The notes beneath the pieces were generated by a model, which was not told where the DNA came from, did not search any database, and worked only from the letters and a program-made list of their open reading frames with translations. The position numbers were made by a program, and so were the translations under genes. Positions 911-44,900 of a stretch of 64,000 nt of DNA are shown in pieces (the stretch's first letter is position 1; each line of letters opens with the position of its first letter). This DNA is from Candidatus Moraniibacteriota bacterium (GTDB taxonomy: Bacteria; Patescibacteriota; Minisyncoccia; Moranbacterales; GCA-2747515): contig CP175956.1 in assembly GCA_046116545.1 (NCBI GenBank), positions 77,219-141,218 of the forward strand, written 5' to 3'.

Positions 911-2638
911 TTACCTCACAAAACAACCATTTGGAATTTGTATATCCATGTTATTTATCTTTTTTGGACTCATTCTATACAACATCAATGTTCCAAAATT
1001 CTTTTTATCAACAACATTATGAATTTCCAACATTTCATCAGCAATATGCACCTTTGATTTTGTTCGCACTAGTACGTAATATCCTTTTCCATCAACTTGC
1101 TCCGTTTCAAAACTACTTCTTTTTATATAACATTGTGCATTATCAATTCCATTTTCAATATTTGTCAAAAAATATAATGTACGTGCATAACGGTTATCAC
1201 CAACAATTAGAAATTTAGACTCATTCTGCTCTTCACTAATATACCGAGATACTTCACGCAATTGTCCAAGTGTAATATAATCTGCACGTTTCATTATTAA
1301 ATCACGCCATTGTAGAGACGCGATTAATCGCGTCTCTACGTTATTTAAAATTGTAAAATATTGCCATGAACTCACGAGGTTGAAAATAAGCAAACAACTT
1401 ACAATGACAATGCTTACGCCAATCCCAACTCTACCAAATTTCTTTTGTAATACTTGTAATACTGTTCCAAACATAATTAAAAATACCGGAACAATCAAAA
1501 GATAAAATCGTGGAGAAATTTGATATGCCATCAATACCAAAAATATATTTACAATACCAAGCCAGAGTACGATAAGTAACTGCCTTTGATACAAATTAAG
1601 TTCAATCTGACTCTCTTTCCGTTTTTTATAACTCACAATAAATGGATATAAGAATACAATACTAATAAGTATTAAGCTACTCATTGCAACTACATGTACT
1701 GGCAATCGTTCCTTACAATCCTTATCACACAAGAAATATCCTGTTGTCGTTTTTTTTGTGCGAATATTATCTCCACCAGACTGATTTCCGGTTAATACTA
1801 CAAAATTATATGTACTTGTTTCTTGTGCACTTCTAAATATTTTTTCAGCAATGTTATGTTTATCGTCTTTGTTGCCTTTTTCAAAGATGACATTTACCAA
1901 TGACTTTGCATTTGCACCACTAGTTTGTATTTCACTAAATATCACAGGAGCATATAACAAGCAAAAAAGTCCTACTGACATAAGCATAACTCTCCAGTCT
2001 ACTTTCATCTTTGTAAATAGGATGTAAGAAATTACTATCAATGGCAGTGTCAAAAATGCTATAAAATGCAATTGCATCGCTACTGCACTAGCTCCCACCA
2101 TCACTAAGAACCAACTTTTTGAAAAAACCTTATTATCCCATGCTCGTAAAAGTCCGTACATCGACAAAGTCATCCAAAAAGGTAACGCATTAGGATTCCA
2201 AGCAAAACGACCGTATGTAATCAAAAAAAGCGATGTCGCAGCCACAGCAACTAACATTACACTTATTGAACGAGAAAAATACAATCGAGCAAATAAATAA
2301 AATAACGGTAAAAATAAAATAGAAAATAATAAATCTGGCAATGCAACAATGCTCGGACCGACTCCAAAAAAGATAGCTGGAATTGCTTGAAAATAATAAA
2401 AAATTGGACCTAAATATAATTCACTTCCCCGTGCATATGGACCAAGTAATGGAATACTACCCCCATTCAACATATCATATACAACAAATACATCTCTAGC
2501 CTGATCTAACTCAAAGTGTAATAAATCTGCATAGTTATAAACACGCAAAAAAATACCCAGTAGAATAAAAATACCAAGCAAAATATATATCACTTTATTA
2601 GATTTGATTTCTGCTAATAAGTCTTTTATTTTCAACAT
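911..2638 (-). CDS. GT-C fold polytopic membrane glycosyltransferase (ArnT/PMT-like, GT39/GT83-type)
   Basis: 575 aa with more than 10 predicted TM helices. An early extracytoplasmic loop carries an acidic motif (ELDQARDVFVVYD) resembling the DE motif of polyprenol-P-sugar-dependent GT-C enzymes. It sits next to three further GT-C paralogs. Confidence 0.55.
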   Translation of the reverse strand: MLKIKDLLAEIKSNKVIYILLGIFILLGIFLRVYNYADLLHFELDQARDVFVVYDMLNGGSIPLLGPYARGSELYLGPIFYYFQAIPAIFFGVGPSIVALPDLLFSILFLPLFYLFARLYFSRSISVMLVAVAATSLFLITYGRFAWNPNALPFWMTLSMYGLLRAWDNKVFSKSWFLVMVGASAVAMQLHFIAFLTLPLIVISYILFTKMKVDWRVMLMSVGLFCLLYAPVIFSEIQTSGANAKSLVNVIFEKGNKDDKHNIAEKIFRSAQETSTYNFVVLTGNQSGGDNIRTKKTTTGYFLCDKDCKERLPVHVVAMSSLILISIVFLYPFIVSYKKRKESQIELNLYQRQLLIVLWLGIVNIFLVLMAYQISPRFYLLIVPVFLIMFGTVLQVLQKKFGRVGIGVSIVIVSCLLIFNLVSSWQYFTILNNVETRLIASLQWRDLIMKRADYITLGQLREVSRYISEEQNESKFLIVGDNRYARTLYFLTNIENGIDNAQCYIKRSSFETEQVDGKGYYVLVRTKSKVHIADEMLEIHNVVDKKNFGTLMLYRMSPKKINNMDIQIPNGCFVR

Positions 2639-2688: not shown

Positions 2689-4932
2689 ATGCAAAGATTC
2701 ACATTAAAAGAATATATTTCTTCTCTCATAATTTTTCTTAGCACTTGTGGAATTATTATATATAAAGTGCATTTCTTCACATCATTGCGCATTGGCACAT
2801 CTCCACGCATATTATATGCGTTTTTTATAATTGCTCTTATATCTCTAATATTTTTTCTATACAAAAACAAGAACTCAGAATTTATCAAAAATTTCCTGAT
2901 ACTCACACTACCCACTGAATTAATTCTCTTGTTAGTAAATAATTTAACTCATAAACTTCACTGGACGTTTGATGTTCTTAGTGGCCTATGGCTATTGCTT
3001 CTTGGTTTTTTCATCATTCAAAAATATACAAAAAATCACAAGAGCACAGAAAACACTGAGACTACTGCAAAACTATATACACCTGTTATCATTACGATGC
3101 TTTTAATCATATCTGTTATTCATATTTTTTTTGGTGCTTATAATTTGGGTAAAGCAGCTTATATTGACGAACGCCTCTGGACTTATAGCAATGAAAAGCG
3201 TATCGAAAAATACTGGAATAATATTTTAGAACATGATTGGAGAAATACACGTCCTAGCGATAAACCTGGTGTCACTCTAGCAATACTTTCTGGTCCATCA
3301 CTCTTATCAGTAACACCTTCTGACTTCAAAGATGACATCAACGATAAAAATGCTTTTGCTCACATGCTTTTTACAATGCGTTTGCCTATAATTATCTTTA
3401 GCACATTGGCTCTATTCTTTTTTTATCATGTACTTGGAAAACTTTTTAACCCCACAATAGGAATGCTCTCTACTGCGTTCATTGGACTCTCCCCAATACT
3501 GCTTGGCGTTAGTCGCATCATTAATCCAGATGCTTTGACATGGATTTTTATACCCTTAACACTATATGCCTATTTCACATATCAAAAAACACAAAATATT
3601 AATTGGATTTATACAACCGGTATTTTACTAGGACTTGGATTGCTTACAAAATACATTGCAAATCTTATATTTCCATTCTTTTTCATTTTACTTTTCACAC
3701 ATACGCTATTTGGTAAATATACAAAAGATCAACTACGCACCCATCTGCGCAATACACTGTCAGGAATTGGAATAATTACACTTATTGCAATAATGACATT
3801 CTATATACTTTATCCTGGAACTTGGGTGAAACTTGATCGCATATTTATCGGTACACTTTGGAGTCAACCATTTGAACCAATTTGGCAATATTTTGTTATT
3901 TTTGTCGCACTTATTGTTATCGACTTTTTCTTTAACAACTCAACAGTAATCCTATGGATATCACTGCAACTACGCAAATTCAAATCTATTATTATTGCAA
4001 TAATTCCAATTATTTTTTTGATTGTGATTTCATTTACTCTATATCATACATATCTTGCCCCACAACCAATCAACTTTGAACAAATTTTAACATCACCAAA
4101 AATAACAGCTAATGAGACTGATAGCGCTACAACATTAGAGGCCTTTGCTACAAGTTTTTATGCTCTTATATTTGGCATATCTCCAATAGCACTACTAGGT
4201 ATATTATTTACATTAATTTTTATTACTTTAAATAAATGGTCTATACCGAACATTCAACGTTCTACAATATGGAATATTTTATTATTTATTCTTATCTTTT
4301 ATTTTGGATCTATATTTAGTTCTACAATACCCACTGTACGTTATCAAATAATTTTATATCCACTGATACTTACTGTATCTGCATTTGGTTGGTACTATTT
4401 ATCTAAAATACTATTTCCACGTAATAAAACCATCTTCTTTTATGTACTTTTTGCTATTATCATTGCCACCTCCACCTATACATTTCTCACATTCAAACCT
4501 TTTTACTTTAGCTATAACAGTCCCATCCTACCCAATGGACAACTTATAAATCCTAAAGACATGGGTGATGGTAATTATGAAGCAGCACAATTTCTCAATT
4601 CACTTCCAAATGCAAAAAATCTAAATGTTTGGTCTGACAAGAGAGGTGTTTGTACATTTTTCATTGGAGATTGTGTTAGTGTCATCCGTAAATCAGATTT
4701 TATAAAGAATGGACCACATTATGATTATTTTGTAATATCTAAAGGCCGTGAAACTCGCACAGTCAATATGTCTCGTGGTTATTCACAAGGACGAATTGAT
4801 TATCCTGTACGTCTAGATTTACTATATACTGAAAATCCTGAATCTATCTTTGAATTAAATCCTGGAAATATAAGTGCAAATTACATAAAGGTAATACCAA
4901 AAGAAAATGTAAATGTCTGGCGCGGTAATTAA
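2689..4932 (+). CDS. GT-C fold membrane glycosyltransferase paralog with a C-terminal soluble domain
   Basis: 747 aa and multi-TM. It has the motifs YIDERLW (DE motif), DKPGVT, RIINPDAL and GLLTKY. The C-terminal non-TM domain motif LNSLPNAKNLNVWSD...C.FF.GDC is conserved in the next two genes. Confidence 0.5.
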   Translation: MQRFTLKEYISSLIIFLSTCGIIIYKVHFFTSLRIGTSPRILYAFFIIALISLIFFLYKNKNSEFIKNFLILTLPTELILLLVNNLTHKLHWTFDVLSGLWLLLLGFFIIQKYTKNHKSTENTETTAKLYTPVIITMLLIISVIHIFFGAYNLGKAAYIDERLWTYSNEKRIEKYWNNILEHDWRNTRPSDKPGVTLAILSGPSLLSVTPSDFKDDINDKNAFAHMLFTMRLPIIIFSTLALFFFYHVLGKLFNPTIGMLSTAFIGLSPILLGVSRIINPDALTWIFIPLTLYAYFTYQKTQNINWIYTTGILLGLGLLTKYIANLIFPFFFILLFTHTLFGKYTKDQLRTHLRNTLSGIGIITLIAIMTFYILYPGTWVKLDRIFIGTLWSQPFEPIWQYFVIFVALIVIDFFFNNSTVILWISLQLRKFKSIIIAIIPIIFLIVISFTLYHTYLAPQPINFEQILTSPKITANETDSATTLEAFATSFYALIFGISPIALLGILFTLIFITLNKWSIPNIQRSTIWNILLFILIFYFGSIFSSTIPTVRYQIILYPLILTVSAFGWYYLSKILFPRNKTIFFYVLFAIIIATSTYTFLTFKPFYFSYNSPILPNGQLINPKDMGDGNYEAAQFLNSLPNAKNLNVWSDKRGVCTFFIGDCVSVIRKSDFIKNGPHYDYFVISKGRETRTVNMSRGYSQGRIDYPVRLDLLYTENPESIFELNPGNISANYIKVIPKENVNVWRGN

Positions 4933-4985: not shown

Positions 4986-6818
4986 ATGTCACTAATAAAA
5001 AATAATCTAAAATCAATAGTCTTAATTATCGCTGTTGTTTTTGTATTTGTTGGAAGTGGCTTGTATCATCTAAATCAATTTGAAACAAGTGATGAACACT
5101 TTTGGAGACTAGAACGCATCCCACAATACTGGACTGCTATAACAACACTTGACCCAGCACAAACATATATAAATGATAAACCTGGAGTCAGCGTAGCACT
5201 TGTATCTGGGATGAGTCTACCATTTACATCATTAGAACGATCATCCTATCCAGATGTACAAGAATATACAATGACACTAAATTATGCTCTCCGCCTCCCT
5301 ATCCTTTTATTCAATGGACTTGTAATGTTGCCTTTGCTCTTTTGGTTAATGACACGAGCGTTTGATAGACGTGTTGCATCTATTGGTATTATCTTAATTG
5401 GAGTAAATCCAATTCTTATTGGAATATCTCAAATTATAAATCCTGATGCTCTCCTGTGGAGTTTTAGTGCTAGTGCACTTTTTAGTTTCTTTGCACTACT
5501 GAAAACTAATGAAAAGAAGTTTATTATACTAACTGGAGTCCTTACTGGATTCGCATTACTTTCTAAATATACCGCAAACCTTTTATTTGTTTTTTATATT
5601 ATGATTGCTGGACTATGGATTATTTACACAGACATCTCTAATATAAAAAAATGGCTACGCACATTTCTTTTAAATTATTTGTTTATCTTTCTGATTTCTG
5701 TTAGCATTTTTGCACTATTTTTACCTGCTACAATTTTAGATTTATCACTGTTTTTATATGGCACAATCCTATCTCCACCCATTAAACCAATTATCATTCC
5801 ATTATTTATAAGTATTATATTACTTACTATTGATGCGTATTTTATCAAAGCTCAAGTCACTGCATCTATTACAAATCTACTCAAAAAAATAAAACTTCCA
5901 ATTTTATATATTTCTGTACTACCATTATTACTTATAATTTTATTTTCACTATTAAATGCTTGGACAGACACACAATTTATTACATTGGATAATTTAAAAG
6001 AAGTAGTTGCAGACAAACAAGAATTGAGGTTTCCTATGCTCGAGGGACTTCCTGCACCTATTTATTTTGCTGGAGAAATAGCTATACAATCTTTTAATAT
6101 ATTATTTTCTCTCACTCCAATCGTTCTTATTTTCACTCTCACAACTTTACTACTTGTTTTTTTCAAAAAAATACCAACTAAATATTATGTGCTACTTATT
6201 TTTTGCGCAATTACCCCACTTTTATTTTTTGTAGGCGGTCTTTTATCTGAAACATTTGTCAACATCCGTTACGCTATAATACTGCAACCATTATTTGCAC
6301 TTATCGCAAGTATTGGATTATCGATCATCATTCCACAAAGAAAATATTTTTTCACATTCTCTTTGATATTTATATTTTTCATTCAAAGTTTGTCAGTGTA
6401 TTATGCTGCTCCATATTATTTCAATTACCAAAATATCTTTTTACCTCAAAAATTTATACTCACAGATTCCTGGAGTTATGGGATATTTGAAGCTACTCAA
6501 TACTTAAATTCCCTACCAAATGCCCAAGATCTAACTATCTGGTCAGATCGCAAAGCTGCTTGTTATTATTTTGATGGCAAGTGCATAATGAGACGAAAAT
6601 TAGATGGCAAAAATCAATTACCTGATTATTTCATAGTTACCAGAAGAGGTGTATTGCGACATCATTTCAAATGGCAAGATGCCGAAATAGCTCCCTTCCC
6701 TGTGGAAACTATCTATACTGAATCAGTTCTAAATAATCCTCATTGGCGTTATGATATATTGAATAGACCACAAAATTATATTAAAATAATTAAAACGCAA
6801 GACATACTTAATAAATAA
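4986..6818 (+). CDS. GT-C fold membrane glycosyltransferase paralog
   Basis: 610 aa and multi-TM. It has SDEHFW, NDKPGVSVA, QIINPDAL and the C-terminal motif YLNSLPNAQDLTIWSD. A ~320-bp stretch is almost identical to the next gene. Confidence 0.5.
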   Translation: MSLIKNNLKSIVLIIAVVFVFVGSGLYHLNQFETSDEHFWRLERIPQYWTAITTLDPAQTYINDKPGVSVALVSGMSLPFTSLERSSYPDVQEYTMTLNYALRLPILLFNGLVMLPLLFWLMTRAFDRRVASIGIILIGVNPILIGISQIINPDALLWSFSASALFSFFALLKTNEKKFIILTGVLTGFALLSKYTANLLFVFYIMIAGLWIIYTDISNIKKWLRTFLLNYLFIFLISVSIFALFLPATILDLSLFLYGTILSPPIKPIIIPLFISIILLTIDAYFIKAQVTASITNLLKKIKLPILYISVLPLLLIILFSLLNAWTDTQFITLDNLKEVVADKQELRFPMLEGLPAPIYFAGEIAIQSFNILFSLTPIVLIFTLTTLLLVFFKKIPTKYYVLLIFCAITPLLFFVGGLLSETFVNIRYAIILQPLFALIASIGLSIIIPQRKYFFTFSLIFIFFIQSLSVYYAAPYYFNYQNIFLPQKFILTDSWSYGIFEATQYLNSLPNAQDLTIWSDRKAACYYFDGKCIMRRKLDGKNQLPDYFIVTRRGVLRHHFKWQDAEIAPFPVETIYTESVLNNPHWRYDILNRPQNYIKIIKTQDILNK

Positions 6819-6828
6819 TCAAAATTAT

Positions 6829-8781
6829 ATGAAAAAATTCATGAAAAAATATTTTCCACTATTATTAGCGATGTTAATCTTTGTTGGATTTGGACTTTAT
6901 CACATCAGCAAATTTGAAACAATTGATGAACACTTTTGGAAATATGATCGCATAGAAAAATATTACAACGGTCTAAGTGAACATAATCTCAAGAAAACAC
7001 GTATAAATGACAAACCTGGTGTAACAGTTGCTCTACTTACAGGAATTGGTTTACCATTCTCTCCATCATTATCAGAACATCAAATTGTAACACAAAGACA
7101 ACAATACACCATGACAAAAGATAATGGTAAAGAACGTGTTTTATATAATTTATTCAACACAAATCAAACACAACAGATAAACTACTCTCTCCGACTTCCA
7201 ATTCTTCTATTCAATGGGCTTGTCATGCTACCTTTACTCTTTTGGTTAATGACACGTGCATTTGATAGACGTGTTGCATCTATTGGTATTATCTTAATTG
7301 GAGTTAATCCGATTCTTATTGGAATATCTCAAATTATAAATCCTGATGCTCTTTTATGGAGTTTTAGTGCTGGTGCTCTTTTTAGTTTCTTTGCACTACT
7401 CAAAACAAATGAAAAAAAGTTCATTGTTCTGACTGGAGTTCTTACAGGATTTGCACTTTTATCTAAATATACTGCAAACCTTTTATTTGTTTTTTATTTG
7501 ATTTCTTATATTTTTTATACAGTACTCAACCAAAATAATGCAGAGTCTTTCAAAAATATGCTTTTGTCATTTGCAAAAAAGATGGTCGGTATCTCTATTG
7601 TTGCATGGATAACCCTTTCAGTATTCATGCCAGCTGTCATTATAACTCCAAAACATTTTCTTTATGCAACATTATACTCTCCTGTTTTTGAGCCCATAGT
7701 AAATATTTTTGCATCATTATTACATATTAAAAATTATATTATCTTTAGCAATGGCACTTATAATACATTGCCATTGGCACTTTTTTCTATGTTAATCTTT
7801 GGTTTTTTATTTATAGCGCTTCCACCATTTATTGCATTTTTATTACAAAAAAAACCAATTATAATTCTTATCATTGGTAAAATATTTATTATAATTCTTG
7901 TGCTTATTTTCGTTTTATCATTTATCAATGCCTGGTTTAATACGCCTTTCTTCTCACTTGAAAATCTCAAAGAAGTTTCTCGCTCTGAAGGGAGTGTAAC
8001 ATTTCCACAATTAGCTAATGAACCCACCCCACTATTTTGGACTAAGGCATTACTAATACAAGCACAAAATTTTATATTCTCCATCCATTCTATTGTAATA
8101 TTTTTCATATTCACAGTATTTATATTTACATTTCGCACAAAACAAATTAAATATGAATGGTTTATATACTTTGCAGCATTCATGCCGTTTGTCTTTCTTG
8201 GAGGAGCTTTAATGTCCAATGTATTTGTGAATGTCCGATATAGTCTTATGCTATATCCAATGTTCATGGCACTTGGTGCAATTGGGATTATAACTCTTTG
8301 CGACGTAATTAATTGGAAATTTAAACGCCCCCTCTTTTTAGGATTATTACTCATCACAAGTATTTATTCGCTATGGATTATCAAGCCTTTCTACTTCAAT
8401 TATACAAACTTCCTATTACCTCATAAATATGTTGTTACAGATGCTTGGGGATATGGATTTTATGAAACAGCACAATATCTAAATCAACTAGATAATTCTA
8501 AAGATATTATCGTTTGGGTTGATCGTGAAGGTCTTTGTCAGTTTTTTGAAGGCAAATGTATCACATCACGTGAAGTATATCTTGATCACACTACAGTAGA
8601 CTATCTAGTTGTCACGCGACGTGGATCTCTCATACGAGAACCAATCCCCATTACCAAAAATGAAAACTCTATGACTTTCAAAAAATACTATACGCCCCAA
8701 TATTTCAATAACCCAATTTGGGAATTAAATATTGATAATCGTCCTGGAAACTTCATAAAGATTATAAAAATTGAAAAATAA
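6829..8781 (+). CDS. GT-C fold membrane glycosyltransferase paralog
   Basis: 650 aa and multi-TM. It has IDEHFW, NDKPGVTVA, QIINPDAL and the C-terminal motif YLNQLDNSKDIIVWVD...C.FFEGKC. Confidence 0.5.
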   Translation: MKKFMKKYFPLLLAMLIFVGFGLYHISKFETIDEHFWKYDRIEKYYNGLSEHNLKKTRINDKPGVTVALLTGIGLPFSPSLSEHQIVTQRQQYTMTKDNGKERVLYNLFNTNQTQQINYSLRLPILLFNGLVMLPLLFWLMTRAFDRRVASIGIILIGVNPILIGISQIINPDALLWSFSAGALFSFFALLKTNEKKFIVLTGVLTGFALLSKYTANLLFVFYLISYIFYTVLNQNNAESFKNMLLSFAKKMVGISIVAWITLSVFMPAVIITPKHFLYATLYSPVFEPIVNIFASLLHIKNYIIFSNGTYNTLPLALFSMLIFGFLFIALPPFIAFLLQKKPIIILIIGKIFIIILVLIFVLSFINAWFNTPFFSLENLKEVSRSEGSVTFPQLANEPTPLFWTKALLIQAQNFIFSIHSIVIFFIFTVFIFTFRTKQIKYEWFIYFAAFMPFVFLGGALMSNVFVNVRYSLMLYPMFMALGAIGIITLCDVINWKFKRPLFLGLLLITSIYSLWIIKPFYFNYTNFLLPHKYVVTDAWGYGFYETAQYLNQLDNSKDIIVWVDREGLCQFFEGKCITSREVYLDHTTVDYLVVTRRGSLIREPIPITKNENSMTFKKYYTPQYFNNPIWELNIDNRPGNFIKIIKIEK

Positions 8782-9273: not shown

Positions 9274-9490
9274 GTCTTTGCGAACAGAAGTGATGCTTAC
9301 TGTGTTATGTGAAGCAATCTCAAAAGTTTATAAATAATCTAACCGAGATTGCTTCGTCGTACCTCCTCCACCCAGGTGGTCCATCTACTACGCTTTAAAT
9401 TCAGAATAGTCGCTATACAGCTCCTTTCTTCATTTATCTTGAACAGAGTTCAATTTATTATGCCCTTGTGGTACACCTTGACGCAATGAC
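9274..9490. repeat. Palindromic element family A, long variant. It has unit I (gtctttgcgaaca...gtgaagcaatctc) and unit II (gagattgcttcgtcgtacctcctccacccaggtggtcc...), and extends to cttgaacagagttcaatt...caccttgacgcaatgac.
   Basis: Two-stem imperfect palindrome. gaagcaatctc pairs with gagattgcttc, and gtctttgcga pairs with tcgcaaagac. The sequence recurs at 12 or more further sites. Confidence 0.8.
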
Positions 9491-12141: not shown

Positions 12142-12229
12142 GAGATTGCTTCGTCGTACCTCCTCGCAAAGACGATATCTAGTCATTGCGAACAGAACCA
12201 AAATCATCTGTGACCTGTGAAGCAATCTC
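12142..12229. repeat. Palindromic element family A (unit II then unit I, opposite order to 9274)
   Basis: gagattgcttcgtcgtacctcctcgcaaagac ... gtcattgcgaacagaacc...gtgaagcaatctc. Confidence 0.8.
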
Positions 12230-12236
12230 GATCATT

Positions 12237-12539
12237 TTATCCATTTTCTATCATTTTACCATATAAATCAACCCACTCAATATTACTATTTTCAATCAAT
12301 GCAATTTTATTTTTACGCGAACCACTTTTTATTTGTTTTTCTCTAGAAATTGCAGACTCAATTGATGGACATACTTCATAATGTACTAACTTATGCAAAT
12401 TATATCTTTGAGTAAATCCCCTTACAATATTATTTTTGTGTTCCCAAATTCGTTTTTGCAAATTAGTAGTAACTCCAACGTACAAAGTACCATCTTTTTT
12501 ATTCGTTAAAATATACACGCACGAAATTTTTTCATTCAT
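12237..12539 (-). CDS. GIY-YIG domain nuclease family protein (UPF0213-like)
   Basis: Motifs VYILTNKKDGTLYVGVTTNLQKRIWEHK and RPW-like. It is flanked on both sides by family-A repeats. Confidence 0.75.
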   Translation of the reverse strand: MNEKISCVYILTNKKDGTLYVGVTTNLQKRIWEHKNNIVRGFTQRYNLHKLVHYEVCPSIESAISREKQIKSGSRKNKIALIENSNIEWVDLYGKMIENG

Positions 12540-12575: not shown

Positions 12576-12680
12576 GTCTTTGCGAGCAACTGTGACTTTT
12601 ATTATGTCTAGCGAAGCAATCTCCACCAGGTTTATTAATATACTCACTAAGATTGCTTCGTCGTACCTCCTCGCAATGAC
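12576..12680. repeat. Palindromic element family A. Its unit II overlaps the 3' end and supplies the stop codon of the GT4 gene.
   Basis: gtctttgcgagcaactgtgac...gcgaagcaatctc / ctaagattgcttcgtcgtacctcctcgcaatgac. On the minus strand, unit II reads ...V S L R G G T T K Q S stop. Confidence 0.8.
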
Positions 12681-13831
12681 ACATTATTATATAGCTCAAC
12701 ATACTCATTTGCCACATTTTCCCAGTTCATTGTCTCCGCTATCAATCTACTTGCATGTCCCATACCATCACATATTTCTGGATTTTCTATTAATATTTTT
12801 AATTTTTCTACGATTGACTGTACATCATTCATTTTTATGAGATAACCATTTTCTCCATTTCTCACAAGCTCCTCCGCTCCACCTGTTGGTGTCATGAGCA
12901 CTGGAAGACCTGATGCCAATGCTTCTAATAAATTATTACTCATTCCTTCATTTAACGATGGCATCACAAATACATCCGCACTATTATAGATACCTGCAGA
13001 TTCTTCCTTTGTATACAATCCACTAAATGTTACTCGTCCATCTAATCTATATTTTTTCACCTGAGCTTTTAACTCTTCCATTGCATTTCCCTCTCCCCCA
13101 GCTATTTGCATTTTGATATGAGGATACATATCAAATAATTCCACAAAAGCATCTATCGCATAATTAAATCCCTTTCGCCTTGATATTCTAGAAGCTAACA
13201 AAATTTTAAATTCTTTTTTTCTATCTTCAACTGTCCTGCTGCTACTACTATAAAAATCTGTATCCACTCCATTAAATATTTGTACAAATTCTTGTTCTGG
13301 CATAGTACTACTAGCAAGCTCTGTAAGACCTTTACTATTTGTTACAACATAATGTGCATCTTTCCATACTTTGTGAATTGTTGGTGTAATGATTTTATAT
13401 AATTTTTTAAATCTTTCACTGTAACCTGGCACATCAGCACCTCGCAGAGATACAATATATGGAATACCATATTTCTTTTTTAATCTTCTTGATATCACAC
13501 CACTAGGCACAGCAAAAAAACTATGCGTCAAATCATAATCATTTCTAGCAATTAATTTTTTGGCAAATTGATATGCCCTAAACGTGTACTTCAATAATTC
13601 TCCTTTTGTTTGATAATTTAAATTATTTGCACTTTTGCCTATTGGAAGTCTATGTATTATTATATTTTCCCCAACTCTCTCTTGCACGTATTCATCTATA
13701 ATTGAAGATGTAACAAGATCAACAAAAACATCATCTCGACGAGAATACTCATCCAAGATGTATTTTGTAGCATTTGCAGCACCACCTCCAAGTGGAGGAT
13801 ATTCATAATTAAAAAATAATACTCTTTTCAT
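12647..13831 (-). CDS. GT4-family (GT-B fold) glycosyltransferase. Its C-terminal 10 aa and stop codon are encoded by a family-A repeat.
   Basis: N-terminal motif FFNYEYPPLGGGAANA, and a C-terminal domain with an E-x7-E-like segment (FVMPSLNEGMSNNLLEALASGLPVL). It ends ...SLRGGTTKQS. Confidence 0.8.
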   Translation of the reverse strand: MKRVLFFNYEYPPLGGGAANATKYILDEYSRRDDVFVDLVTSSIIDEYVQERVGENIIIHRLPIGKSANNLNYQTKGELLKYTFRAYQFAKKLIARNDYDLTHSFFAVPSGVISRRLKKKYGIPYIVSLRGADVPGYSERFKKLYKIITPTIHKVWKDAHYVVTNSKGLTELASSTMPEQEFVQIFNGVDTDFYSSSSRTVEDRKKEFKILLASRISRRKGFNYAIDAFVELFDMYPHIKMQIAGGEGNAMEELKAQVKKYRLDGRVTFSGLYTKEESAGIYNSADVFVMPSLNEGMSNNLLEALASGLPVLMTPTGGAEELVRNGENGYLIKMNDVQSIVEKLKILIENPEICDGMGHASRLIAETMNWENVANEYVELYNNVSLRGGTTKQS

Positions 13832-15377: not shown

Positions 15378-15543
15378 GTCATTGCGAACAGAGCCCACAT
15401 CATTTGTAACATGTGAAGCAATCTCATTACAATATCTATGTCTTTGCGAACAGAGCCCATGTTCATTATGACATGTGAAGCAATCTCATTGGGTTTATTA
15501 GTTCACTTACTGAGATTGCTTCGTCGTACCTCCTCGCAAAGAC
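15378..15543. repeat. Palindromic element family A. Two tandem unit-I copies are followed by unit II.
   Basis: gtcattgcgaacagagcccacatcatttgtaacatgtgaagcaatctc, then gtctttgcgaacagagcccatgttcattatgacatgtgaagcaatctc, then gagattgcttcgtcgtacctcctcgcaaagac. Confidence 0.8.
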
Positions 15544-15590
15544 GATAGCCTGTGGATAAACTTGAACAGTTATAGAATTATATCCAACCA

Positions 15591-17043: not shown

Positions 17044-17186
17044 CATTTCATACGTCCTGCGAAGCAATCTCGTCAAAATATTTATGTCATTGCGAACAGA
17101 AACCACATCATTTGTAACATGTGAAGCAATCTCCGTAGGTTTATTAATGCACCCACTAAGATTGCTTCGTCGTACCTCCTCGCAAA
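17044..17186. repeat. Palindromic element family A. Two unit-I variants are followed by unit II.
   Basis: gtctttgcgagcaactgtgccatttcatacgtcctgcgaagcaatctc ... gtcattgcgaacagaaaccacatcatttgtaacatgtgaagcaatctc ... ctaagattgcttcgtcgtacctcctcgcaaaaac. Confidence 0.8.
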
Positions 17187-17238
17187 AACAAAATACTTTA
17201 TTGCCTCTCCTTGTAAAGACGTTGTTTTTTAAATGTTT

Positions 17239-18333: not shown

Positions 18334-19842
18334 TTGATATACTGTTTATATATTCACATTGAAATAAATACTAAAATGTTACATAAAAAAAATATTACAA
18401 TTGCAAATTCAACAATATTCTTAACTATCCTGTGCTTATTATTTTTTGGCATGACTAAATTTTCTTTTGCTGCTGAGTGGCGCTATGAGGGGGTTGCCTA
18501 TTATGTACCAACCTCATCAAGTAATAACCTTCCTATATATCGATTTTATTCTCCGAAAAATAAATCTCATTTCTTTACAAAGTCAAAATCAGAAAAAGAT
18601 GCTATTATCAAAAAATATCCTACAACAGAGTGGAGATATGAAGGAGTTGCCTATTATGTGCCAAAGTCCTCAACAGGAAACCAGGCTGTTTATCGATTTT
18701 ATTCTCCTAGCAAAAAAACACATTTCTTTACAAAATCAAAATCAGAAAAAGATGCTATTATCAAAAAATATCCCACAACAGAGTGGCGATATGAAGGAGT
18801 CGCATATTATGTGCCAATAACTTCTACTAACAATAAACCTGTATATCGATTTTACAATACTATAAACAAGGCACATTTTTTTACAGCCTCAGAAAGTGAA
18901 AAGATTAGGTTAACTGCTAGTATTTATGGACCGTATATTTCTATTGGACTTCATGAATATTCACGTAGCACACTAAAAGACTCTGCATTCAAAATTGACT
19001 CAAAAAAAGATTATCTCATCAAAGACAAAAATGGTACAACAATTGCAAAAATTAAGGCTGGTGTACAAACAAAAGTTAAATATGATTCTGATGGAAATTT
19101 AAAAATATATAATTCCATATCAGAAAAAAAAGTTAATAAAGAGGTTAGATTTGAAGCAGCTGATGGAAACAATAGTGGTATGATATTTGATATACACAAA
19201 CCAGAATCTGATTTTGATGAATACCGTGGCAAAACAAAACTACGTTATAGTGATACAAGCAAAAATATTTGGGTTATCAATGAATTACCATTGGAATATT
19301 ATATTTGGGGTATGGGTGAAATCACTGGAACAGGTCCAATGGAATATAATAAAATGATGACCACAGCATATCGTACATATGGTTATTGGAAAATCCTCTA
19401 TTCCACCAAGTATGCTACTGAAGGATTTAAAGTAAATGCAACGCCTGGTAATCAAATTTATTATGGTTATGAATGGGAAAAAAGGTATCCTCGTATTAGA
19501 GAAGGAGCTGAATCAACACGTGGGAAAATTGCAAAACATGGTGATGATGTGGCATTAACTCCTTACTCAAGCTGGACTGATGGCAAGACACGTAGTTTTG
19601 AAGAACATTGGGGATCAACACTATATCCATGGTGTCAGTCTGTATCAGACCCTTATGGTGATTATAATGGTGACTATTGGGACAATTCATATAAAAGTAC
19701 ATCCGACCTTGTAGCAAGTGGCAATCATATGGTAGGTATCAGTGCACATGGAGCACTAACACTAGCAAATGATAAAAATTGGAATTGGGACAGAATTATG
19801 AAATACTATTTAGATGGAATTAATATTGTTTCAATTTATTAA
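18334..19842 (+). CDS. Secreted SpoIID/LytB-domain protein with three N-terminal 42-aa tandem repeats
   Basis: Signal peptide, then three copies of EWRYEGVAYYVP...PVYRFYSP.NK.HFFT.S.SEK. The C-terminal domain has SpoIID-like motifs INELPLEYYIWGMGEI...AYRTYGYW and YPWCQSVSDP. Confidence 0.65.
   Translation: MIYCLYIHIEINTKMLHKKNITIANSTIFLTILCLLFFGMTKFSFAAEWRYEGVAYYVPTSSSNNLPIYRFYSPKNKSHFFTKSKSEKDAIIKKYPTTEWRYEGVAYYVPKSSTGNQAVYRFYSPSKKTHFFTKSKSEKDAIIKKYPTTEWRYEGVAYYVPITSTNNKPVYRFYNTINKAHFFTASESEKIRLTASIYGPYISIGLHEYSRSTLKDSAFKIDSKKDYLIKDKNGTTIAKIKAGVQTKVKYDSDGNLKIYNSISEKKVNKEVRFEAADGNNSGMIFDIHKPESDFDEYRGKTKLRYSDTSKNIWVINELPLEYYIWGMGEITGTGPMEYNKMMTTAYRTYGYWKILYSTKYATEGFKVNATPGNQIYYGYEWEKRYPRIREGAESTRGKIAKHGDDVALTPYSSWTDGKTRSFEEHWGSTLYPWCQSVSDPYGDYNGDYWDNSYKSTSDLVASGNHMVGISAHGALTLANDKNWNWDRIMKYYLDGINIVSIY
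18475..18860 (+). repeat. Three 126-bp (42-aa) tandem coding repeats
   Basis: Periodicity is visible in the DNA and in the protein. The alternate-frame ORF 18467..18820 is an artefact of this periodicity. Confidence 0.8.
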
Positions 19843-20604: not shown

Positions 20605-22467
20605 ATGAGAAACATCAAAAATATATATCTAATAATACTTGCATTATTTTTAATAGCATTTCCCACAGTAATTCATGCACAATCAAAATTGCCATCAATC
20701 CCCATACAATCAATCGCAGCTGAAAAAAACTATGTTGAAGGTGAAGTAATTGTAAAATATAAAATAAATACAAAAAAACAACAATTACTAAAAACATCTA
20801 CAGAAAAAAATGAATCACCAAGACTACTGCAATCTCTACAGGAAACACAATCCATGCATGATCTAAAAATAAAAAATACATTCAAAAATTTAAATATCAC
20901 AACATTACAATCAGATATACAATCAACCCAAGATTTAATAACTAAACTAGAACAAGATCCTGAAGTGGAATATGCGGAACCTAACTACAGAAAATATCCT
21001 ACATCAATACCAAATGATACTTATTTCAAAAGTACACAATGGGCACTATACAATACAGGACAGGAACTTTGTACACCTGACTGCACTACAGGAACAATCG
21101 ATGATGATATTGACGCAACAAATGCTTGGGATATAGAGATTAGTGCTGCCCAAAAAATAACCGTTGCAGTAATAGACAGTGGCTTAAATTATAATCACGA
21201 AGATTTATTACAAAATTTATGGAATGGTGCTAGTTGTGTAAATGAAAATGGAACAACTATACATGGTGGTTGTCCATATCATGGATGGGATTACGCCGAT
21301 AATGACAATAATCCTGCTGATACTACTGGAAGTGCGCAAGGACATGGAACAAGCGTTTCAAGTATATTTGGTGCAACAACAAATAATTCAAAAGGACTTG
21401 CAGGCATCAGTCTATATGGCAATGTAAAGGTTATGGCACTTCGATTTGATTTGGATACAATCTCTGAAATAAAAGCTATTGAATTTGCAAAAAATAATGG
21501 TGTCAAAATTATAAATGCAAGTTTTGCAGGAGATGCCTATTCACAATCAGAAAAAGATGCTATTGATGCATTTCCTGGAATATTTATAACAGCATCTGGC
21601 AACGGTGGCATTGATGGCTTACGTGATAACAATGACGTTACACCGCAATATCCATGTAATTATTCATCAAGTAATATAATATGTGTAGGTGCATCTGATC
21701 AAAATGATAATCTTGCTAGTTTTTCAAATTATGGACAAACAAGCGTTGATTTAGTGGCTCCTGGAGTAAATATATTAATTGCTTGTGATAATGTCTACTG
21801 TACTGGTGATGGTACTTCATTTTCTACACCCTACGTAACAGGTGTTGCTGCAATCTTGTCTAGCCACAATACAAAATTGTCTACATCACAAGTGAAAAGT
21901 TTAATACTTGATAATGTCGATAATGTTGGACTATCAACACAGATAAAAACGGGAGGTCGTCTTAATATGTATAAATCTCTTTACGATTTGAAAACTAGTT
22001 ACGGATATTCATACTCCACAAAACCAGTTTACAGATTCTATTCACCAAGCAATAAAGCACATTTCTTTACTGTATCCGAAACTGAAAAGAATCATATTGT
22101 TGCAACTTACCCAACCACTGAATGGCGATATGAAAATATTGCTTATTATGTACCAACAACATCTACTGGCAATAAGCCTGTGTATAGATTCTATTCACCA
22201 CGCAACAAAGCTCATTTTTTCACTGTATCAGAAACTGAAAAGAATCATATTGTTGCAACTTACCCAACCACTGAATGGCGATATGAAAATATTGCTTATT
22301 ATGTACCAACAACATCTACTGGCAATAAGCCTGTATATCGATTTTATTCTCCACGTAACAAAGCACATTTCTTTACTGTATCAGAAAGTGAAAAGAATCA
22401 TATTGTTGCAACTTACCCAACCACTGAATGGCGATATGAAAATATTGCTTATTATGTACCAAAATAA
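20605..22467 (+). CDS. Secreted subtilisin-like serine protease (peptidase S8) with three C-terminal 42-aa tandem repeats
   Basis: Signal peptide. Catalytic triad motifs VAVIDSG (Asp), HGTSVSS (His) and GTSFSTPYVTGVAA (Ser). The C-terminus has three near-identical repeats PVYRFYSPRNKAHFFTVSETEKNHIVATYPTTEWRYENIAYYVP. Confidence 0.85.
   Translation: MRNIKNIYLIILALFLIAFPTVIHAQSKLPSIPIQSIAAEKNYVEGEVIVKYKINTKKQQLLKTSTEKNESPRLLQSLQETQSMHDLKIKNTFKNLNITTLQSDIQSTQDLITKLEQDPEVEYAEPNYRKYPTSIPNDTYFKSTQWALYNTGQELCTPDCTTGTIDDDIDATNAWDIEISAAQKITVAVIDSGLNYNHEDLLQNLWNGASCVNENGTTIHGGCPYHGWDYADNDNNPADTTGSAQGHGTSVSSIFGATTNNSKGLAGISLYGNVKVMALRFDLDTISEIKAIEFAKNNGVKIINASFAGDAYSQSEKDAIDAFPGIFITASGNGGIDGLRDNNDVTPQYPCNYSSSNIICVGASDQNDNLASFSNYGQTSVDLVAPGVNILIACDNVYCTGDGTSFSTPYVTGVAAILSSHNTKLSTSQVKSLILDNVDNVGLSTQIKTGGRLNMYKSLYDLKTSYGYSYSTKPVYRFYSPSNKAHFFTVSETEKNHIVATYPTTEWRYENIAYYVPTTSTGNKPVYRFYSPRNKAHFFTVSETEKNHIVATYPTTEWRYENIAYYVPTTSTGNKPVYRFYSPRNKAHFFTVSESEKNHIVATYPTTEWRYENIAYYVPK
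22018..22464 (+). repeat. Three near-identical 126-bp tandem coding repeats
   Basis: The copies differ at only a few nucleotides. The alternate-frame ORF 22097..22525 is an artefact. Confidence 0.85.
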
Positions 22468-22540
22468 AATAATACCTACCAACTCATCGCCATTGCTAGG
22501 AAGTACAACGAAGCAATCTCAATAATAAACTCCAGCATTC

Positions 22541-37226: not shown

Positions 37227-37640
37227 TTACTTTGGCACATAGTATGATACTCCTTCATACCTCCATTCTGTTGTAGGATATGTTGCAATAATATGATCCT
37301 TTTCACTTTCTGAAACTGTGAAAAAATGTGCCTTATTACGTGATGAATAAAATCTATATACTGGTTTATTACCTGCTGCAACTGTTGGCACATAGTATGA
37401 TATACCTTCATATCTCCATTCTGTTGTAGGATATGTTGCAATAATATGATCCTTTTCACTTTCTGAAACTGTGAAAAAATGTGCCTTATTACGTGATGAA
37501 TAAAATCTATATACTGGTTTATTACCTGATGCAGATGTTGGCACATAGTATGATATTCCTTCATATCTCCATTCTGTTGTAGGATATGTTGCAATTATAT
37601 GATTCTTTTCACTTTCTGAAACTGTGAAAAAATGGGCCTT
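37227..37640 (-). repeat. Three near-identical 126-bp tandem coding repeats
   Basis: Visible DNA periodicity. The alternate-frame ORF 37181..37594 is an artefact. Confidence 0.85.
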
Positions 37641-40600
37641 ATTACGTGCTGAGTAAAATCTATATACAGCTTGTTTTTCTTGTCTATCTGCATTCTCTTC
37701 TTCTATACCGTCTACATCAAAACTTATTGGAAAATCTGTATCATTTGTATTTCCTGATTCTTCTGTACACCTTATATAATAATTGTACGTATTTCCGTCT
37801 GATAATCCTGTTATATCATGTCCATGATCCTCGCCTCCTGTAACATTTGTCATTGCTGACATATCTGCATAAACTGTATTTAGAGCATCAGAATATCTAC
37901 ATGTTGCATTTTCCCATGTATTTAAATATATTTCTACACTAGTTGTTCCACTTGGTTGTGTCCCATCTGGGCTACCATCAAATCTATCTGGCATTGTATT
38001 ATCTACTTCAAAAGAAGTAACACTTAATACATTACTGGTATTTGCAGAACCATCTGTCACACTAATTGTACAATTACTATGAGTTCCCTCCGATAAAAAA
38101 TTAAAAGTAATTGTGTTATTTCCAACAGTCGCTGTACTTGTAACACTAGAGCAATCACCTCCATAAGTAATAGTTCCTACTTCATCTGTGTTGAATGTAT
38201 AGTCTGGTGTATTATTATTTGTTGGAGTTGATACTGGTGTCACTTCCGTTACTATAGGCGCTACCACATCGCTAATTGATTCATCTTTTATTTTTGATAC
38301 AAAAATATCATAACATCCATATGATGTTAAAGTATTTCCAGTCATATTAATTGTATCTTTAAATCTTCCAACTAAATATCCTTTCCCATAGTCATTAAAA
38401 GCCATTGCTTCACCTGTGTCAGTGCTTGTATTGCCCCAAGACTCTAATGAACTAGCATCTCCAGTTACAACATCTAATATTCCATAAAATATATCATAAC
38501 CACCAGCAGAACTCACGGGCAATGCGTCTGCATATAATGTTCCATAAAATCCACCTGTTATATATATGTTATTATCATTTACTTTAATGTCTGTACTATT
38601 CGTTGATGACGCGTTAGTCCAATGCTTCATCCAATCTACATCTCCATCAGTATTCAATCTTGCAATATATATATTATCATTACTGATTCCTGCTAAGGCT
38701 TGTCCAAATACATCTGCATTATTTTGAAACGTGCCTGATGTATACACATTTCCACTATCATCTATATCAATTGTATATCCATAATCACGAGCATACTCTG
38801 CACTACCACCTCCCTGTTTGGACCATACACTATCTCCATTTACATCTAATTTTGCCAAAAATATATCATATCCTCCAGTTCCACCACCTTCCGTAAATAC
38901 ATTCCCAAAAATATTTGCAACATCACTAAAATAACCGGTAACAAATACATTTCCATTTGTGTCTGTGACAATATCATTGCCTTTATCTAGGCTAGAGCCA
39001 CCCGATCTTTTTGCCCAAATATTATTTCCATCACTATCTATCTTTGCTACAAAAATATCATCACTACCAGCTGATACTAGAGATACTCCTAAAATATCAG
39101 TAGTCCCCGCAAATGAACCAGTTATGTACAAATCATCATTATCATCTATATATATCGATTTAGGATATTCTGTACTTGTACCACCAAAATTATATGCCCA
39201 AATCACATTACCATCATTATCTAATTTTGAAAGATAACCATCATAACTTCCGTTTGATGTTAAATCTATTCCAAAAATATTTGCATCATTACTAAAATAG
39301 CCTGTTAGATATAAATTACCCATGCTATCAATTTCAATAGATGGACTAGTTACATAACCAGTACCGTAAGCATGTTTTGTCCAAACAGAATTCCCATCTA
39401 AATCCAACTTTGTAATGAACGTATCCCACGGTCCATCTGCCACTAAATTTGTACCAAATATATCAGCATCTGTGTTAATAATTCCAACAACATAAGCATT
39501 TCCAGAATCATCAATAACAACATCATAAGCACCTTCACTTCCGCCTGAGTACGTATATGAGTTACACAATCCTGCATAATCCCCACCAGCATGTTTTGTC
39601 CACTCTGTAGTTCCAATATTAATATTTTTCATCATCAATTTTGTACCATTTGAACCGTCTGGCATATTATCATTTGATTCAAATGCTATTTTACTTCTGT
39701 CGGGTGAGATTGATGGTGCTCCATCATATCCTGCAAAATTTGTAAGTCTCTCCACAGTACCGCCTGCAACTGGAATTTTATAAATTTGTGCTAAATTTGT
39801 TTCAAAATCACTACTGTAGATTATATAATGACCATATTCTGAAAATACAGCATCTGTCTTGTCACCTGCACCACTTGTAACTTTTGATTTGTCTGTTCCA
39901 TCTGTATTCATAGTCCATATATCCCACATACCTCCATCTAATTTTTGATATAAAATTTTATCTCCTTTTGGTGACCAATTTGGTTGTCTACAATCATCTC
40001 CCGTATCTGTTAGATTTATGTAACTACTACTTCCATCAATTTTATACTTTGTAATAATTCCATCAGTTGGCACATCTACATCATGAGTTTCAAAAACAAC
40101 CCACTGACCATCGTGACTAAATGACGGTTCATATGACATTTTAGCACTCCCGCCTATTCTATCTGTAATTTTAACTTCTGCTCCTGTTGTAGCACTATCA
40201 CCTATACGAAATACTTCATCATGTGGATCTTTAGATGAAGAAAATGTTATTTCATTTCCAACCCATGAACTCCCAGGTAAATTCACATTATCATTTCCAT
40301 CACTCATGAGTTCTGTCACATTTTCTGATGCTATATCATAAATGTATAAATCAGCCGGACCTTCATTATATCCATTTCTCCACCGTGTAAAAAGAATTTT
40401 ACTTCCATCGGGAGAAAAAGCAGGGTTTTGCAAACTACCTGTTAAATTTATATTTAATACTGTCTCCCCATCATTTCTGACTATATAATCCTCGCATCCA
40501 AATCTGTATGCATCTAAATCAAGATTTTTCTTAAGCCAAGAATATCCACTAGAGTTTGCCTGTGAACAAAATTTATCTGTATCTACTCTGTACTCAACTC

Positions 40601-41934: not shown

Positions 41935-44900
41935 TTATTTAATTAACTTTTTAAAAATAAACACACTAACAATCATCAAAAATAATAGGAATATTCCAAT
42001 CAAAATATCTTTGATTGATTTTTTGTTTTCGGAATTATTATCATCTTTTATTTCCTTATTTTCATTTTCTACTGTATTGTTTTGAGATTTCTCTACTTCG
42101 GTCGAAATAACGTCCTTTTCATTTGCCACATCATCCCCCAGAGATTGCTTCGTCGTACCTCCTCGCAAAGACTCATTATTAAAAATATTTTCCGTAATAT
42201 TATTTTTTTCGTCATCGTCATCATCATTGTCTTTGTCATCATCTTTATTTTCATTGCTTTCACTACTACTAAATACTGTACTTCCATCATTTCCATCCTC
42301 TAATGTAGTAGTTCCATTGATTTGTGGTACAACTTCATAATCATTACTTCCATCACCATCATAATCAGCTGTGAGTCTTGTAATATTTTCCAATCCAGTT
42401 CTTGGAATTGCAAAACTTACTTTTGTATTTTCTGATGTTGGTAGATTTTCCATTGTTAGATATGAGGTTACTTCTTCTCCTGCCTCCGTGATACTCACTT
42501 CCTCTAATTTGATAGTATATGAACCTGTATTATAACCATCCAACTCCACGATTATATCACTACCACCCCATCCTACAAATTTATGTTCTCCAAATACATC
42601 GTAATAACTATTTGGCATATTTTCTTCTATAATTTGATTTCCATTTTCATCTATTATGGGTCCTGTGTGATTTCCTTGATTGTCGTATAAATGAATGTCT
42701 AGTGGTGAATATAATGCCATTCTAAGTCTTTTTGCACTGTGTTTACTATGCTTTATTGCGTCAGTGTCATCTGGTCTATTTTTCGTGATATAATCAGACA
42801 ATTCTTCTTGAATTTCATGTTTACTGATGATATTTGAGATTAAATTTCGTAACGACTTAACTTCTAAAATATCTTTGTGCTTTCTATCTTTCGCAAAACC
42901 CTTATTTTCTTCATACATATCCAAAAAATATTTCTCAACATTCTCAGATTCTGACATCATAAGTGAACTTGGTGTTACTACAACATTATCTCCATCTACT
43001 GTATATTTTGGTATATATGATTCTACTGTTACATCTTTGCATTTCGTTCTTTTTATTCCTTCTTTTGTTACTTTATCTTCACATTCTACTTTTGTGATAC
43101 TTTCATAATCTATTTCACTTATTGTATCAAGCCCCCAGCCTCCTATTTGTATTAGATTTACATTTTCTGGTGGTGTCCAGTTATTTAACTCTTCGTGCAA
43201 TTCTTTATTTTCATCAAATAATTTCTCATTTAATATATTTGCTCTTTTTGTATCATTCTTATTTGGTTTGTGTCTATTATCTTTTTTTGCCAATAGAAAA
43301 TCCTTGAATTCATCATAACTATTTATTGTATCTCCATATGCTTTTTTGTATTTCTTGTATTCTGATTTTTCTGATTTAAAATTTATTATTGGTTTATCTA
43401 TTCTTCTGAAATATTCTTCTGTTGGTAAAAGTCCATAAGCAGATGGCATATTTCGTACTACCTCCCTAGCTTCTGCGTCACTGATAACTGAATTTAATTC
43501 TATTTTTTCATCAAATCCATACAACATTGTCAAGATTGCCTTTGATGTTCCCATTTGTGGTGAACTTACCATGACAATATTATCAACTTTATCTGTCATG
43601 TTCAATATTTCAAGTTGTTGCATTATGGATTTTGCTAGTAATCCACCATTTGAATGAGCTACAATTGTAACTTTTCCACTAACTGATGAGTCAGATAATC
43701 TCATCACTTCACTTATTGGATTTTTTATAGAACTCATTTCATAATTTGTTCCATTTATTGCAATATCGTCTACACTTTTTCTCCAATCATATGCATATAA
43801 AGAATAATCATTTATTATTCTATCATCTTTTAAGTTTTTTAAATCTCCAAAAAATCTTTTGTAAATATTTGGAGCTAATACACTAGGAAGTCCTGCTTCA
43901 TAAATTGGCTCTTCAGTGAAAATATCATTTATACTATTTCCATCTTCATCTAATAATATATTTTTGTAATCATCTCCACCTGGAGTAGGTGGCCATACTT
44001 GATTTGTACCGTCATATAATCTGCTAGCTTTTGCACCTGGTAAAAACAATACATTTGATGCAAAATCCGATGATCCTCTCCAATCGTATTCTAATACATT
44101 TGTATCTCCGCTTACTTTTTCACCTGCTGCTAATATTGCATAATCGTCTCCATTTTCATTAACAAAGTTACCTGTTGGACCGTTTGTATGTCCGTACCAA
44201 TTATTTTCTAAAATAACCTTGCTACTGTCATGAGTCATTGCATCATTTTCACATGTTTCACAACATGCATCATAAATAGCATCATTTTGATTATTGTTAT
44301 ATTCATCATCACAGTTATCATAACAAATATCTTCTCCTTCAAAGTCATAAACTACAACATTTGAAATTACTGCTATATTTTGTCCACTTTCTTCAAAATT
44401 AGAATTTTTAATATGTACATAACTATTTTCATTGTAATCTTCTTCAAGTTCCATCTCTACTTGAATATCTGCATACTTGCTATTTTTGAAAATAACATTT
44501 TCCATATCTAATTGTCCTGACATATGTAGTATTGCTGGTGCTTTTCGAATAGCTTCTTCATCTGCATAAACATTATTTGTTATGATGTCATGTATTGCTA
44601 TCCCTGGACAATGTAATTCATTGTAATCAAAATATTCTCCCAATCCATCAAATTCTACAAATTTAAAAAATGATGGTTCAAATATATAACCATCAATTTC
44701 ATACGTATCAAATTTAAATGCTGAAACTCCACCTAAATCACACTGCTCATCAAACTCATTTCCTTCATTAAATGGAGTTTTTGTAAAAACTATTTTATTA
44801 TCAATATCGCCAACTGCAACAATACGTCCAGCATCTTGTACTACGATATGCTTTATTGATATATGTGATCCAGCTTCAATAGTTACTGTTGCACCATCAA

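Follow-up and report, generated by a model that had tools for sequence, protein, structure and literature searches.

Probable recurrent gene conversion in the conserved core of tandem GT-C glycosyltransferase genes from a Moraniibacteriota lineage

The glycosyltransferase locus and its shared tract

The window, the whole 64,000-nucleotide stretch of Candidatus Moraniibacteriota DNA analyzed here, opens with four genes for membrane glycosyltransferases of the GT-C type (Pfam PMT_2), termed D, A, B, and C. Genes B and C each contain one copy of a closely matching tract.

911-2638, minus strand: gene D, 575 aa, PMT_2; divergently oriented and outside the exchange
2689-4932, plus strand: gene A, 747 aa, PMT_2 paralog; outside the exchange
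4986-6818, plus strand: gene B, 610 aa, predicted GT-C (PMT_2) glycosyltransferase
6829-8781, plus strand: gene C, 650 aa, predicted GT-C (PMT_2) glycosyltransferase from ORF and Pfam match; tandem paralog of B
5278-5597, plus strand: tract copy in B, residues 99-204; 88.4% nucleotide and 97% amino acid identity to 7178-7497
7178-7497, plus strand: tract copy in C, matching 5278-5597 without gaps at an offset of 1900

All four proteins score above the curated PMT_2 cut-off of 26.1 bits (B, 36.8; C, 43.5; A, 53.1; D, 26.6), and the multi-helix membrane organization of the GT-C fold is present. The Pfam family is shared with GT-C enzymes of the PMT/ArnT/STT3 type, but identity to any of the solved GT-C structures (5f15, ArnT; 6p2r, Pmt1-Pmt2; 3waj, AglB; 9s6t, ALG12) is only 8-14%, and a sequence search of the PDB gave no match for the tract-bearing proteins. 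No family exceeded its cut-off in an NCBIfam scan, where Agl23 was sub-threshold (24.5 bits against a cut-off of 126). NCBI names P0001 as ArnT, the L-Ara4N transferase; this assignment was rejected in the strict sense, as no curated ArnT equivalog or subfamily model in NCBIfam is matched, and "ArnT family" is best taken here as a fold-level label. Public gene calls start gene C four codons further on (P0012). A 199-aa ORF lying antisense within gene C (7758-8357, minus strand) is AT-rich, lacks support, and is most likely spurious.

A repeat search of the window returned 5278-5577 against 7178-7477 at 88% identity, and the full ungapped match extends to 320 nt, of which 283 are identical. The sequence-only reading had ended the tract at 5607 in B and 7497 in C and had put its DNA identity at about 90% or more; the C end is exact, the B end lay about 10 nt too far, and the identity falls slightly short of that figure. 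Chance is excluded as an explanation of the match (blastn E = 6e-116). At the protein level 103 of 106 residues agree. The encoded peptide had been quoted correctly with two of its differences, S/G at 5472 and I/V at 5526, while a third, A/S at 5286, had been missed; these three are the only nonsynonymous changes among the 37 nucleotide differences. Outside the tract, B and C are far more diverged, as had been claimed (41% protein and 58% DNA identity in the N-terminal flank, 34% and 50% in the C-terminal flank), and a sliding-window profile of 30 codons, the check that had been proposed, falls in a sharp step at both tract ends. The homogenized part thus amounts to about 17% of the gene. Its left edge lies 2 nt ahead of an Asn codon, in the window as in the related contig L049, with random similarity upstream, and adjoins a 20-codon insertion specific to C-type genes. 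The other two paralogs are uninvolved: the identity of A to the tract peptide is only about 38%, A has no DNA repeat in common with B or C, and a tblastn search with the tract found no match in D at E <= 1e-5.

Every sequence in this study is a metagenome assembly, in which near-identical repeats can be mis-joined, and the similarity might in principle have arisen from collapsed or mis-joined repeats. One such event is apparent in contig L048, and contig L049 ends within the repeat. The protein P0006 (L048 1-2030) would be a hybrid, C-type at its N-terminus and B-type at its C-terminus. It was rejected as a real fusion because L048 begins and ends with the same 141 nt, implying a cycle of 1889 nt, in agreement with the spacing of the B and C repeats; most probably an assembler cycled through identical tract copies, 141 being a common maximum k-mer size in assemblers. 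The two copies in the window, by contrast, differ at 37 positions, in frame and almost all synonymous, which collapse would not give. Over 2961 nt spanning B and the start of C, an independent JGI contig obtained from a different sample (L001) matches at 100% identity, and protein B is present on five contigs. The likelihood of an assembly artefact in the window is therefore close to negligible.

Conservation of the tract and its functional reading

Residues 99-204 form the most conserved block of the family, even among homologs of 35-45% identity. Across 74 homologs, identity to B averages 0.62 in the tract but only 0.40 and 0.33 in the flanks, with abrupt drops at residues 81-100 and 201-220. 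Part of the amino acid mosaic is thus the ordinary conservation profile of the family. This profile, together with the scarcity of amino acid changes between the two copies, is what would be seen if purifying selection alone had frozen the tract in both paralogs since their duplication, with no exchange of DNA. One feature of the protein is at odds with that account: residues 121-140 are identical in B and C of the window, yet only 31% conserved family-wide. Because the amino acid mosaic in part reflects family conservation, selection and exchange have to be told apart at silent sites and in other genomes.

In an AF2 model the tract runs from TM2 to the first half of TM6, comprising helices 91-125, 128-139, 142-147, 154-174, and 178-193 and the start of helix 195-214. 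Arg103, Asn152-Pro153-Asp154, Trp158, and Lys194-Tyr195 are invariant within it. The first extracytoplasmic loop carries an acidic motif, Asp36 and Glu37, that is invariant in 79 homologs; both this motif and the invariant Lys65-Pro66-Gly67 of the same loop belong to the N-terminal flank and lie outside the tract. In ArnT, Asp55 and Glu56 form the catalytic acidic motif, Asp158, which precedes TM4, is paired with Lys203 and in contact with the acceptor, and the donor site is placed mainly at EL1 and EL4 (PMC7801869). By position only, Asp36/Glu37 would be equivalent to ArnT Asp55/Glu56, and Asp154 and Lys194, judged from their placement relative to the modeled helices, may correspond to ArnT Asp158 and Lys203. 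It had been suggested that homogenization preserves a donor-binding core while the termini diverge for acceptor specificity. That division finds no support, because the catalytic Asp-Glu motif is outside the tract; moreover, Asp154 within it would match an acceptor-contacting residue.

Silent sites and phylogeny in related lineages

The comparison set comprises five or six related lineages with the B-C locus or parts of it. A scan of genome contigs gave 6 loci, one of them close, and a metagenome scan gave 33, few of them close; most of the informative loci were obtained by exact-protein look-ups. L002 is a 91-kb contig with the D-A-B-C order of the window. Lineage J has its C gene on L045 and its B gene on L046/L047, with L045 overlapping L046 and L047 at 99.3-99.6% nucleotide identity, and L003 is a more distant relative. 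L042/L010 and L043 carry a B gene fused to a GH28 domain, and L044, L048, and L049 were also recovered. The genomes compared are far apart, with neighboring proteins 54-85% identical and orthologs saturated at silent sites (pS about 0.6-0.75, as Nei-Gojobori estimates near saturation). Other retrieved tandem GT-C arrays (L015, L024, L026, L027, L030, and others) gave only weak short matches of 65-82%, so tract exchange appears confined to B and C in this clade.

Several of these loci have features of their own. The fused B-type genes (L042 1931-5185 and L043 1659-4940) encode proteins of 1084-1093 aa with a C-terminal Glyco_hydro_28 domain, an extension that B of the window lacks, and L042 has an extra 607-aa gene downstream of C. 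In B-like genes on L009 (956-1435) and L031 (2038-2472), about 40-55 codons are inserted in frame within the tract, following ...FFALLK; their sequence is repetitive, of CHPELDS type, and looks like a palindromic repeat element that has entered a coding region.

Silent sites were compared at codons for the same degenerate amino acid in both genes, tract against flanks, by Fisher's test, with the following results for B/C pairs.

Window B and C: silent identity 0.71 in the tract, 0.49 in the flanks; p = 5e-4
L043 B and C: 0.79 in the tract, 0.53 in the flanks; p = 5e-5
L003 B and L045 C: 0.83 in the tract, 0.53 in the flanks; p = 1e-6
L042 B and C: 0.60 in the tract, 0.49 in the flanks; p = 0.08
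L002 B and C: 0.54 in the tract, 0.50 in the flanks; not significant

Eight of nine cross-genome control pairs lacked a significant silent excess. The exception, B of the window with C of L043 (p = 0.005), hints at a tract of common descent or at some transfer from one lineage to another. Silent codons were also scanned in the manner of GENECONV, with 5000 permutations. The scan was significant for L043 and lineage J (each p = 2e-4), for L042 (p = 0.03), and for the window (p = 0.002), whose best segment, 5361-5450 / 7261-7350, matches at 28 of 30 silent codons; neither the L002 pair nor the controls contained a significant segment. The L002 pair serves as an internal control, in which the tract protein is conserved (pN 0.11) and the silent sites are saturated, the pattern that selection alone would produce. 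The first 27 tract codons of the window, likewise silent-saturated, are also what that account expects; the synonymous excess indicative of conversion is present in the rest of the window tract.

Phylogenies (NJ/JC; tract alignment of 318 nt) are incongruent between tract and flanks. Each flank separates B-type from C-type genes as reciprocally monophyletic groups with 100% bootstrap support, and pN is 0.36-0.48 across types compared with 0.10-0.26 within types. In the tract, support for B-type monophyly is 0%, and genes group by genome: the window pair at 91-94%, the L043 pair at 92-97%, and B and C of lineage J at 100%. Third codon positions alone recover the same groups (76%, 84%, and 99%, respectively). 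Identity of B and C tracts from one genome is 96-97% in lineage J, 87.4% in L043, 83.3% in L042, and 75.2% in L002, and reaches 100% over the 119 nt available in L049; cross-genome tract pairs are mostly 72-84% identical. Genome-specific substitutions are common to both L049 copies (NRALRIPLV...YWLLW...SLGIVF), and lineage-specific ones to B and C of lineage J (STGAILAFF...VITGLLTGAALL). Purifying selection by itself leaves unexplained the silent excess confined to same-genome pairs, the clustering by genome, third positions included, and these shared substitutions. As a sole cause it is largely refuted by these comparisons and is now very unlikely.

Exchange between genomes, in which B and C each acquired the tract on its own from other strains or species, would fit some of the same observations, among them the silent excess of window B with L043 C. 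The C gene of L045 is a mosaic whose 5' part matches L047 B and whose 3' part matches L046 B. In the C-terminal flanks, L002 B is nearest to B of the window (pN 0.11), yet L002 C is nearest to L042 C (pN 0.11). Since these gene trees disagree and the neighbors A, D, and an LPG-synthase-like gene are only 54-65% identical between the window and L002, whole-gene alleles at this glycosylation locus may move between lineages, as the discordance suggests. In the window, L043, lineage J, and L049, however, each tract is most closely related to its paralogous copy in that genome or lineage, and two imports of one allele are less parsimonious than one internal copy. Import from elsewhere thus has a very small probability as the source of the shared tract.

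A single ancient segment swap in the ancestor of the clade, followed by ordinary divergence without recurrence, would account for B and C tracts that are about equally distant across genomes (pN 0.05-0.14), and the pS of 0.42 for the window pair is compatible with it. A single swap predicts B and C sub-clades within the tract, whereas same-genome pairs are sisters. Same-genome identity also ranges from 75% (L002) to 100% (L049), and the endpoints vary; in L043, for instance, tract codons 28-106 are homogenized and codons 1-27 are not. Because endpoints differ among lineages, the conversion events are taken to be separate, and a one-time swap is even less credible than either selection or import.

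Recurrent interlocus gene conversion between the tandem paralogs B and C, here and independently in relatives, is thus the reading that we hold highly probable from these sequence comparisons. The non-reciprocal recombination that had been proposed is borne out by the incongruence of tract and flanks, by the same-genome silent excess, and by the independent occurrences. A further point in favor of conversion is L011, C-type by its flanks, whose tract is more distant from both types (pN 0.16-0.21) than B and C tracts are from one another across genomes (0.05-0.14).

Age, mechanism, and significance of the proposed exchange

The window copies are not freshly converted, and purifying selection on them is strong, because only 3 of the 37 changes are nonsynonymous and the whole tract has pS 0.42 and pN 0.02 (Nei-Gojobori). 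Differences are unevenly distributed along it. Segment 5278-5360 has 15 differences in 83 nt with 10 of 23 silent codons identical, the same as the flanks (82 of 168; p = 0.66). Segment 5453-5597 has 20 differences in 145 nt with 32 of 45 silent codons identical (p = 0.011 against the flanks). Between them lies a core in which 28 of 31 silent codons are identical (0.90; p = 9e-6 against the flanks; Fisher p = 0.004 against the remainder of the tract).

5361-5452, plus strand: putative youngest detectable conversion segment, copy in B; 2 differences in 92 nt
7261-7352, plus strand: its counterpart in C

Given this uneven profile of differences and silent codons, we infer that the youngest detectable event is limited to the core, which encodes AFDRRVASIGIILIGVNPILIGISQIINPDA, and spanned about 92-100 nt (roughly 90-100 nt). 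The remainder of the window tract would reflect older events and strong purifying selection (dN/dS about 0.03-0.05): the 3' part appears to carry an older signal, and the 5' part is best read as ancient homogenization with purifying selection on the most conserved GT-C block. The description of the conversion as recent therefore applies to the core and not to the rest of the tract. The core is unlikely to conceal a nucleotide-level element, because across genomes its silent identity (0.55) is similar to that of the 3' part (0.60).

The following course of events is proposed. B and C would descend from an old tandem duplication of a GT-C gene, their flanks having settled long ago into two distinct orthologous types. 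The block of about 320 bp, encoding TM2-TM6 with the Asn-Pro-Asp and Lys-Tyr loops, would retain identity sufficient for RecA-type homologous recombination, which has a homology-length requirement, and short stretches would now and then be copied from gene to gene. Each conversion restores identity and therefore makes the next one easier. The tract would end at the limits of homology, where the 20-codon indel bounds it on the left and the sequence becomes type-specific on the right; exchange may stop at the flanks either since homology ends there or since converted flanks would abolish the functional difference between B and C. Such a homology-dependent, self-reinforcing process could also lapse, as in L002, and the longest exact runs shared by B and C fit this picture (lineage J, 175 nt; L043, 59; window, 44; L042, 33; L002, 20). 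Conversion appears to be episodic, because the L002 pair (75% nucleotide identity, saturated silent sites) is without detectable conversion. The events are most readily understood as intragenomic recombination rather than another copying process.

For the window, B is tentatively taken as the donor (B to C). The window pair groups with L002 B in the tract tree at only 64% (17% at third positions), and the diagnostic residues, IIL as opposed to I(V/I)F, are ambiguous for the donor, since IL-like states also occur in L044 C and in outgroups. The direction of conversion probably varies between lineages.

Concerted evolution of bacterial paralogs through gene conversion is long established, for example in tufA/tufB of Salmonella and babA/babB and homA/homB of Helicobacter pylori. 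The B/C pair resembles these systems in the non-reciprocal intragenomic copying, in within-genome paralogs being closer than between-genome orthologs, and in short, homology-limited tracts. In contrast to them, only a small part of the gene is homogenized between flanks whose protein identity stays at 34-41%, the genes belong to small-genome CPR bacteria that are uncultivated, and nothing ties the exchange to antigenic or phase variation. Region-specific interlocus conversion has been described in tandem HMA4 paralogs of Arabidopsis halleri, where "mosaic divergence" was modeled explicitly and conversion efficacy varies along the tandem copies, giving a patchwork of homogenized and diverged segments (bioRxiv 10.1101/2025.10.29.685298). 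HMA4 is, however, a eukaryotic and recent case with three copies, whereas the B/C duplication is ancient (silent-saturated flanks) and its homogenized patch coincides with the conserved catalytic-core helices of the family. Literature searches found no earlier description of such conversion for CPR GT-C genes. As an instance of conversion between tandem paralogs the B/C patch is clear yet unexceptional, and it reveals no new mechanism.

It is interesting to consider whether selection favors the exchange itself, although this seems unlikely. In CPR populations that are small and clonal, the exchange may let each gene correct errors in the essential catalytic core of the other, or B and C may form a heteromer, by analogy with Pmt1-Pmt2, whose contact helices in TM2-TM6 must stay matched. 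If either held, the same boundaries would recur in five or more lineages through function, and not merely where homology ends.

Gene conversion of this kind would mean that paralogs in a CPR (Moraniibacteriota) lineage actively and repeatedly undergo homologous recombination with each other, and would offer a natural example of a conserved enzyme core homogenized while the remainder of two paralogs stays distinct. In practice, phylogenies and ortholog assignments of these GT-C genes must leave out residues 99-204. The tract repeat causes assemblers to break or cycle, as in L048 and L049, and database "hybrid" proteins such as P0006 may be artefacts.

The window contains further repeats. A repeat whose core is GAGATTGCTTCGTCGTACCTCCTCGCAA is dispersed, for the most part between genes, at 9324-9391, 12628-12695, 15491-15558, 17137-17204, and 42120-42187, with a second motif, GTCATTGCGAACAGAGCC...GTGAAGCAATC, and a partner repeat at 12166, 15362, 15424, and 17070. 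One copy supplies the final codons of a GT4 ORF (12647-13831), and copies flank a small GIY-YIG-like ORF (12237-12539). Tandem units of 153 nt (51 codons), 62-96% identical to one another, are found at 18389-18994, 22034-22486, and 37232-37690, the last array being inverted relative to the other two; presumably they encode repeat domains of large surface proteins.
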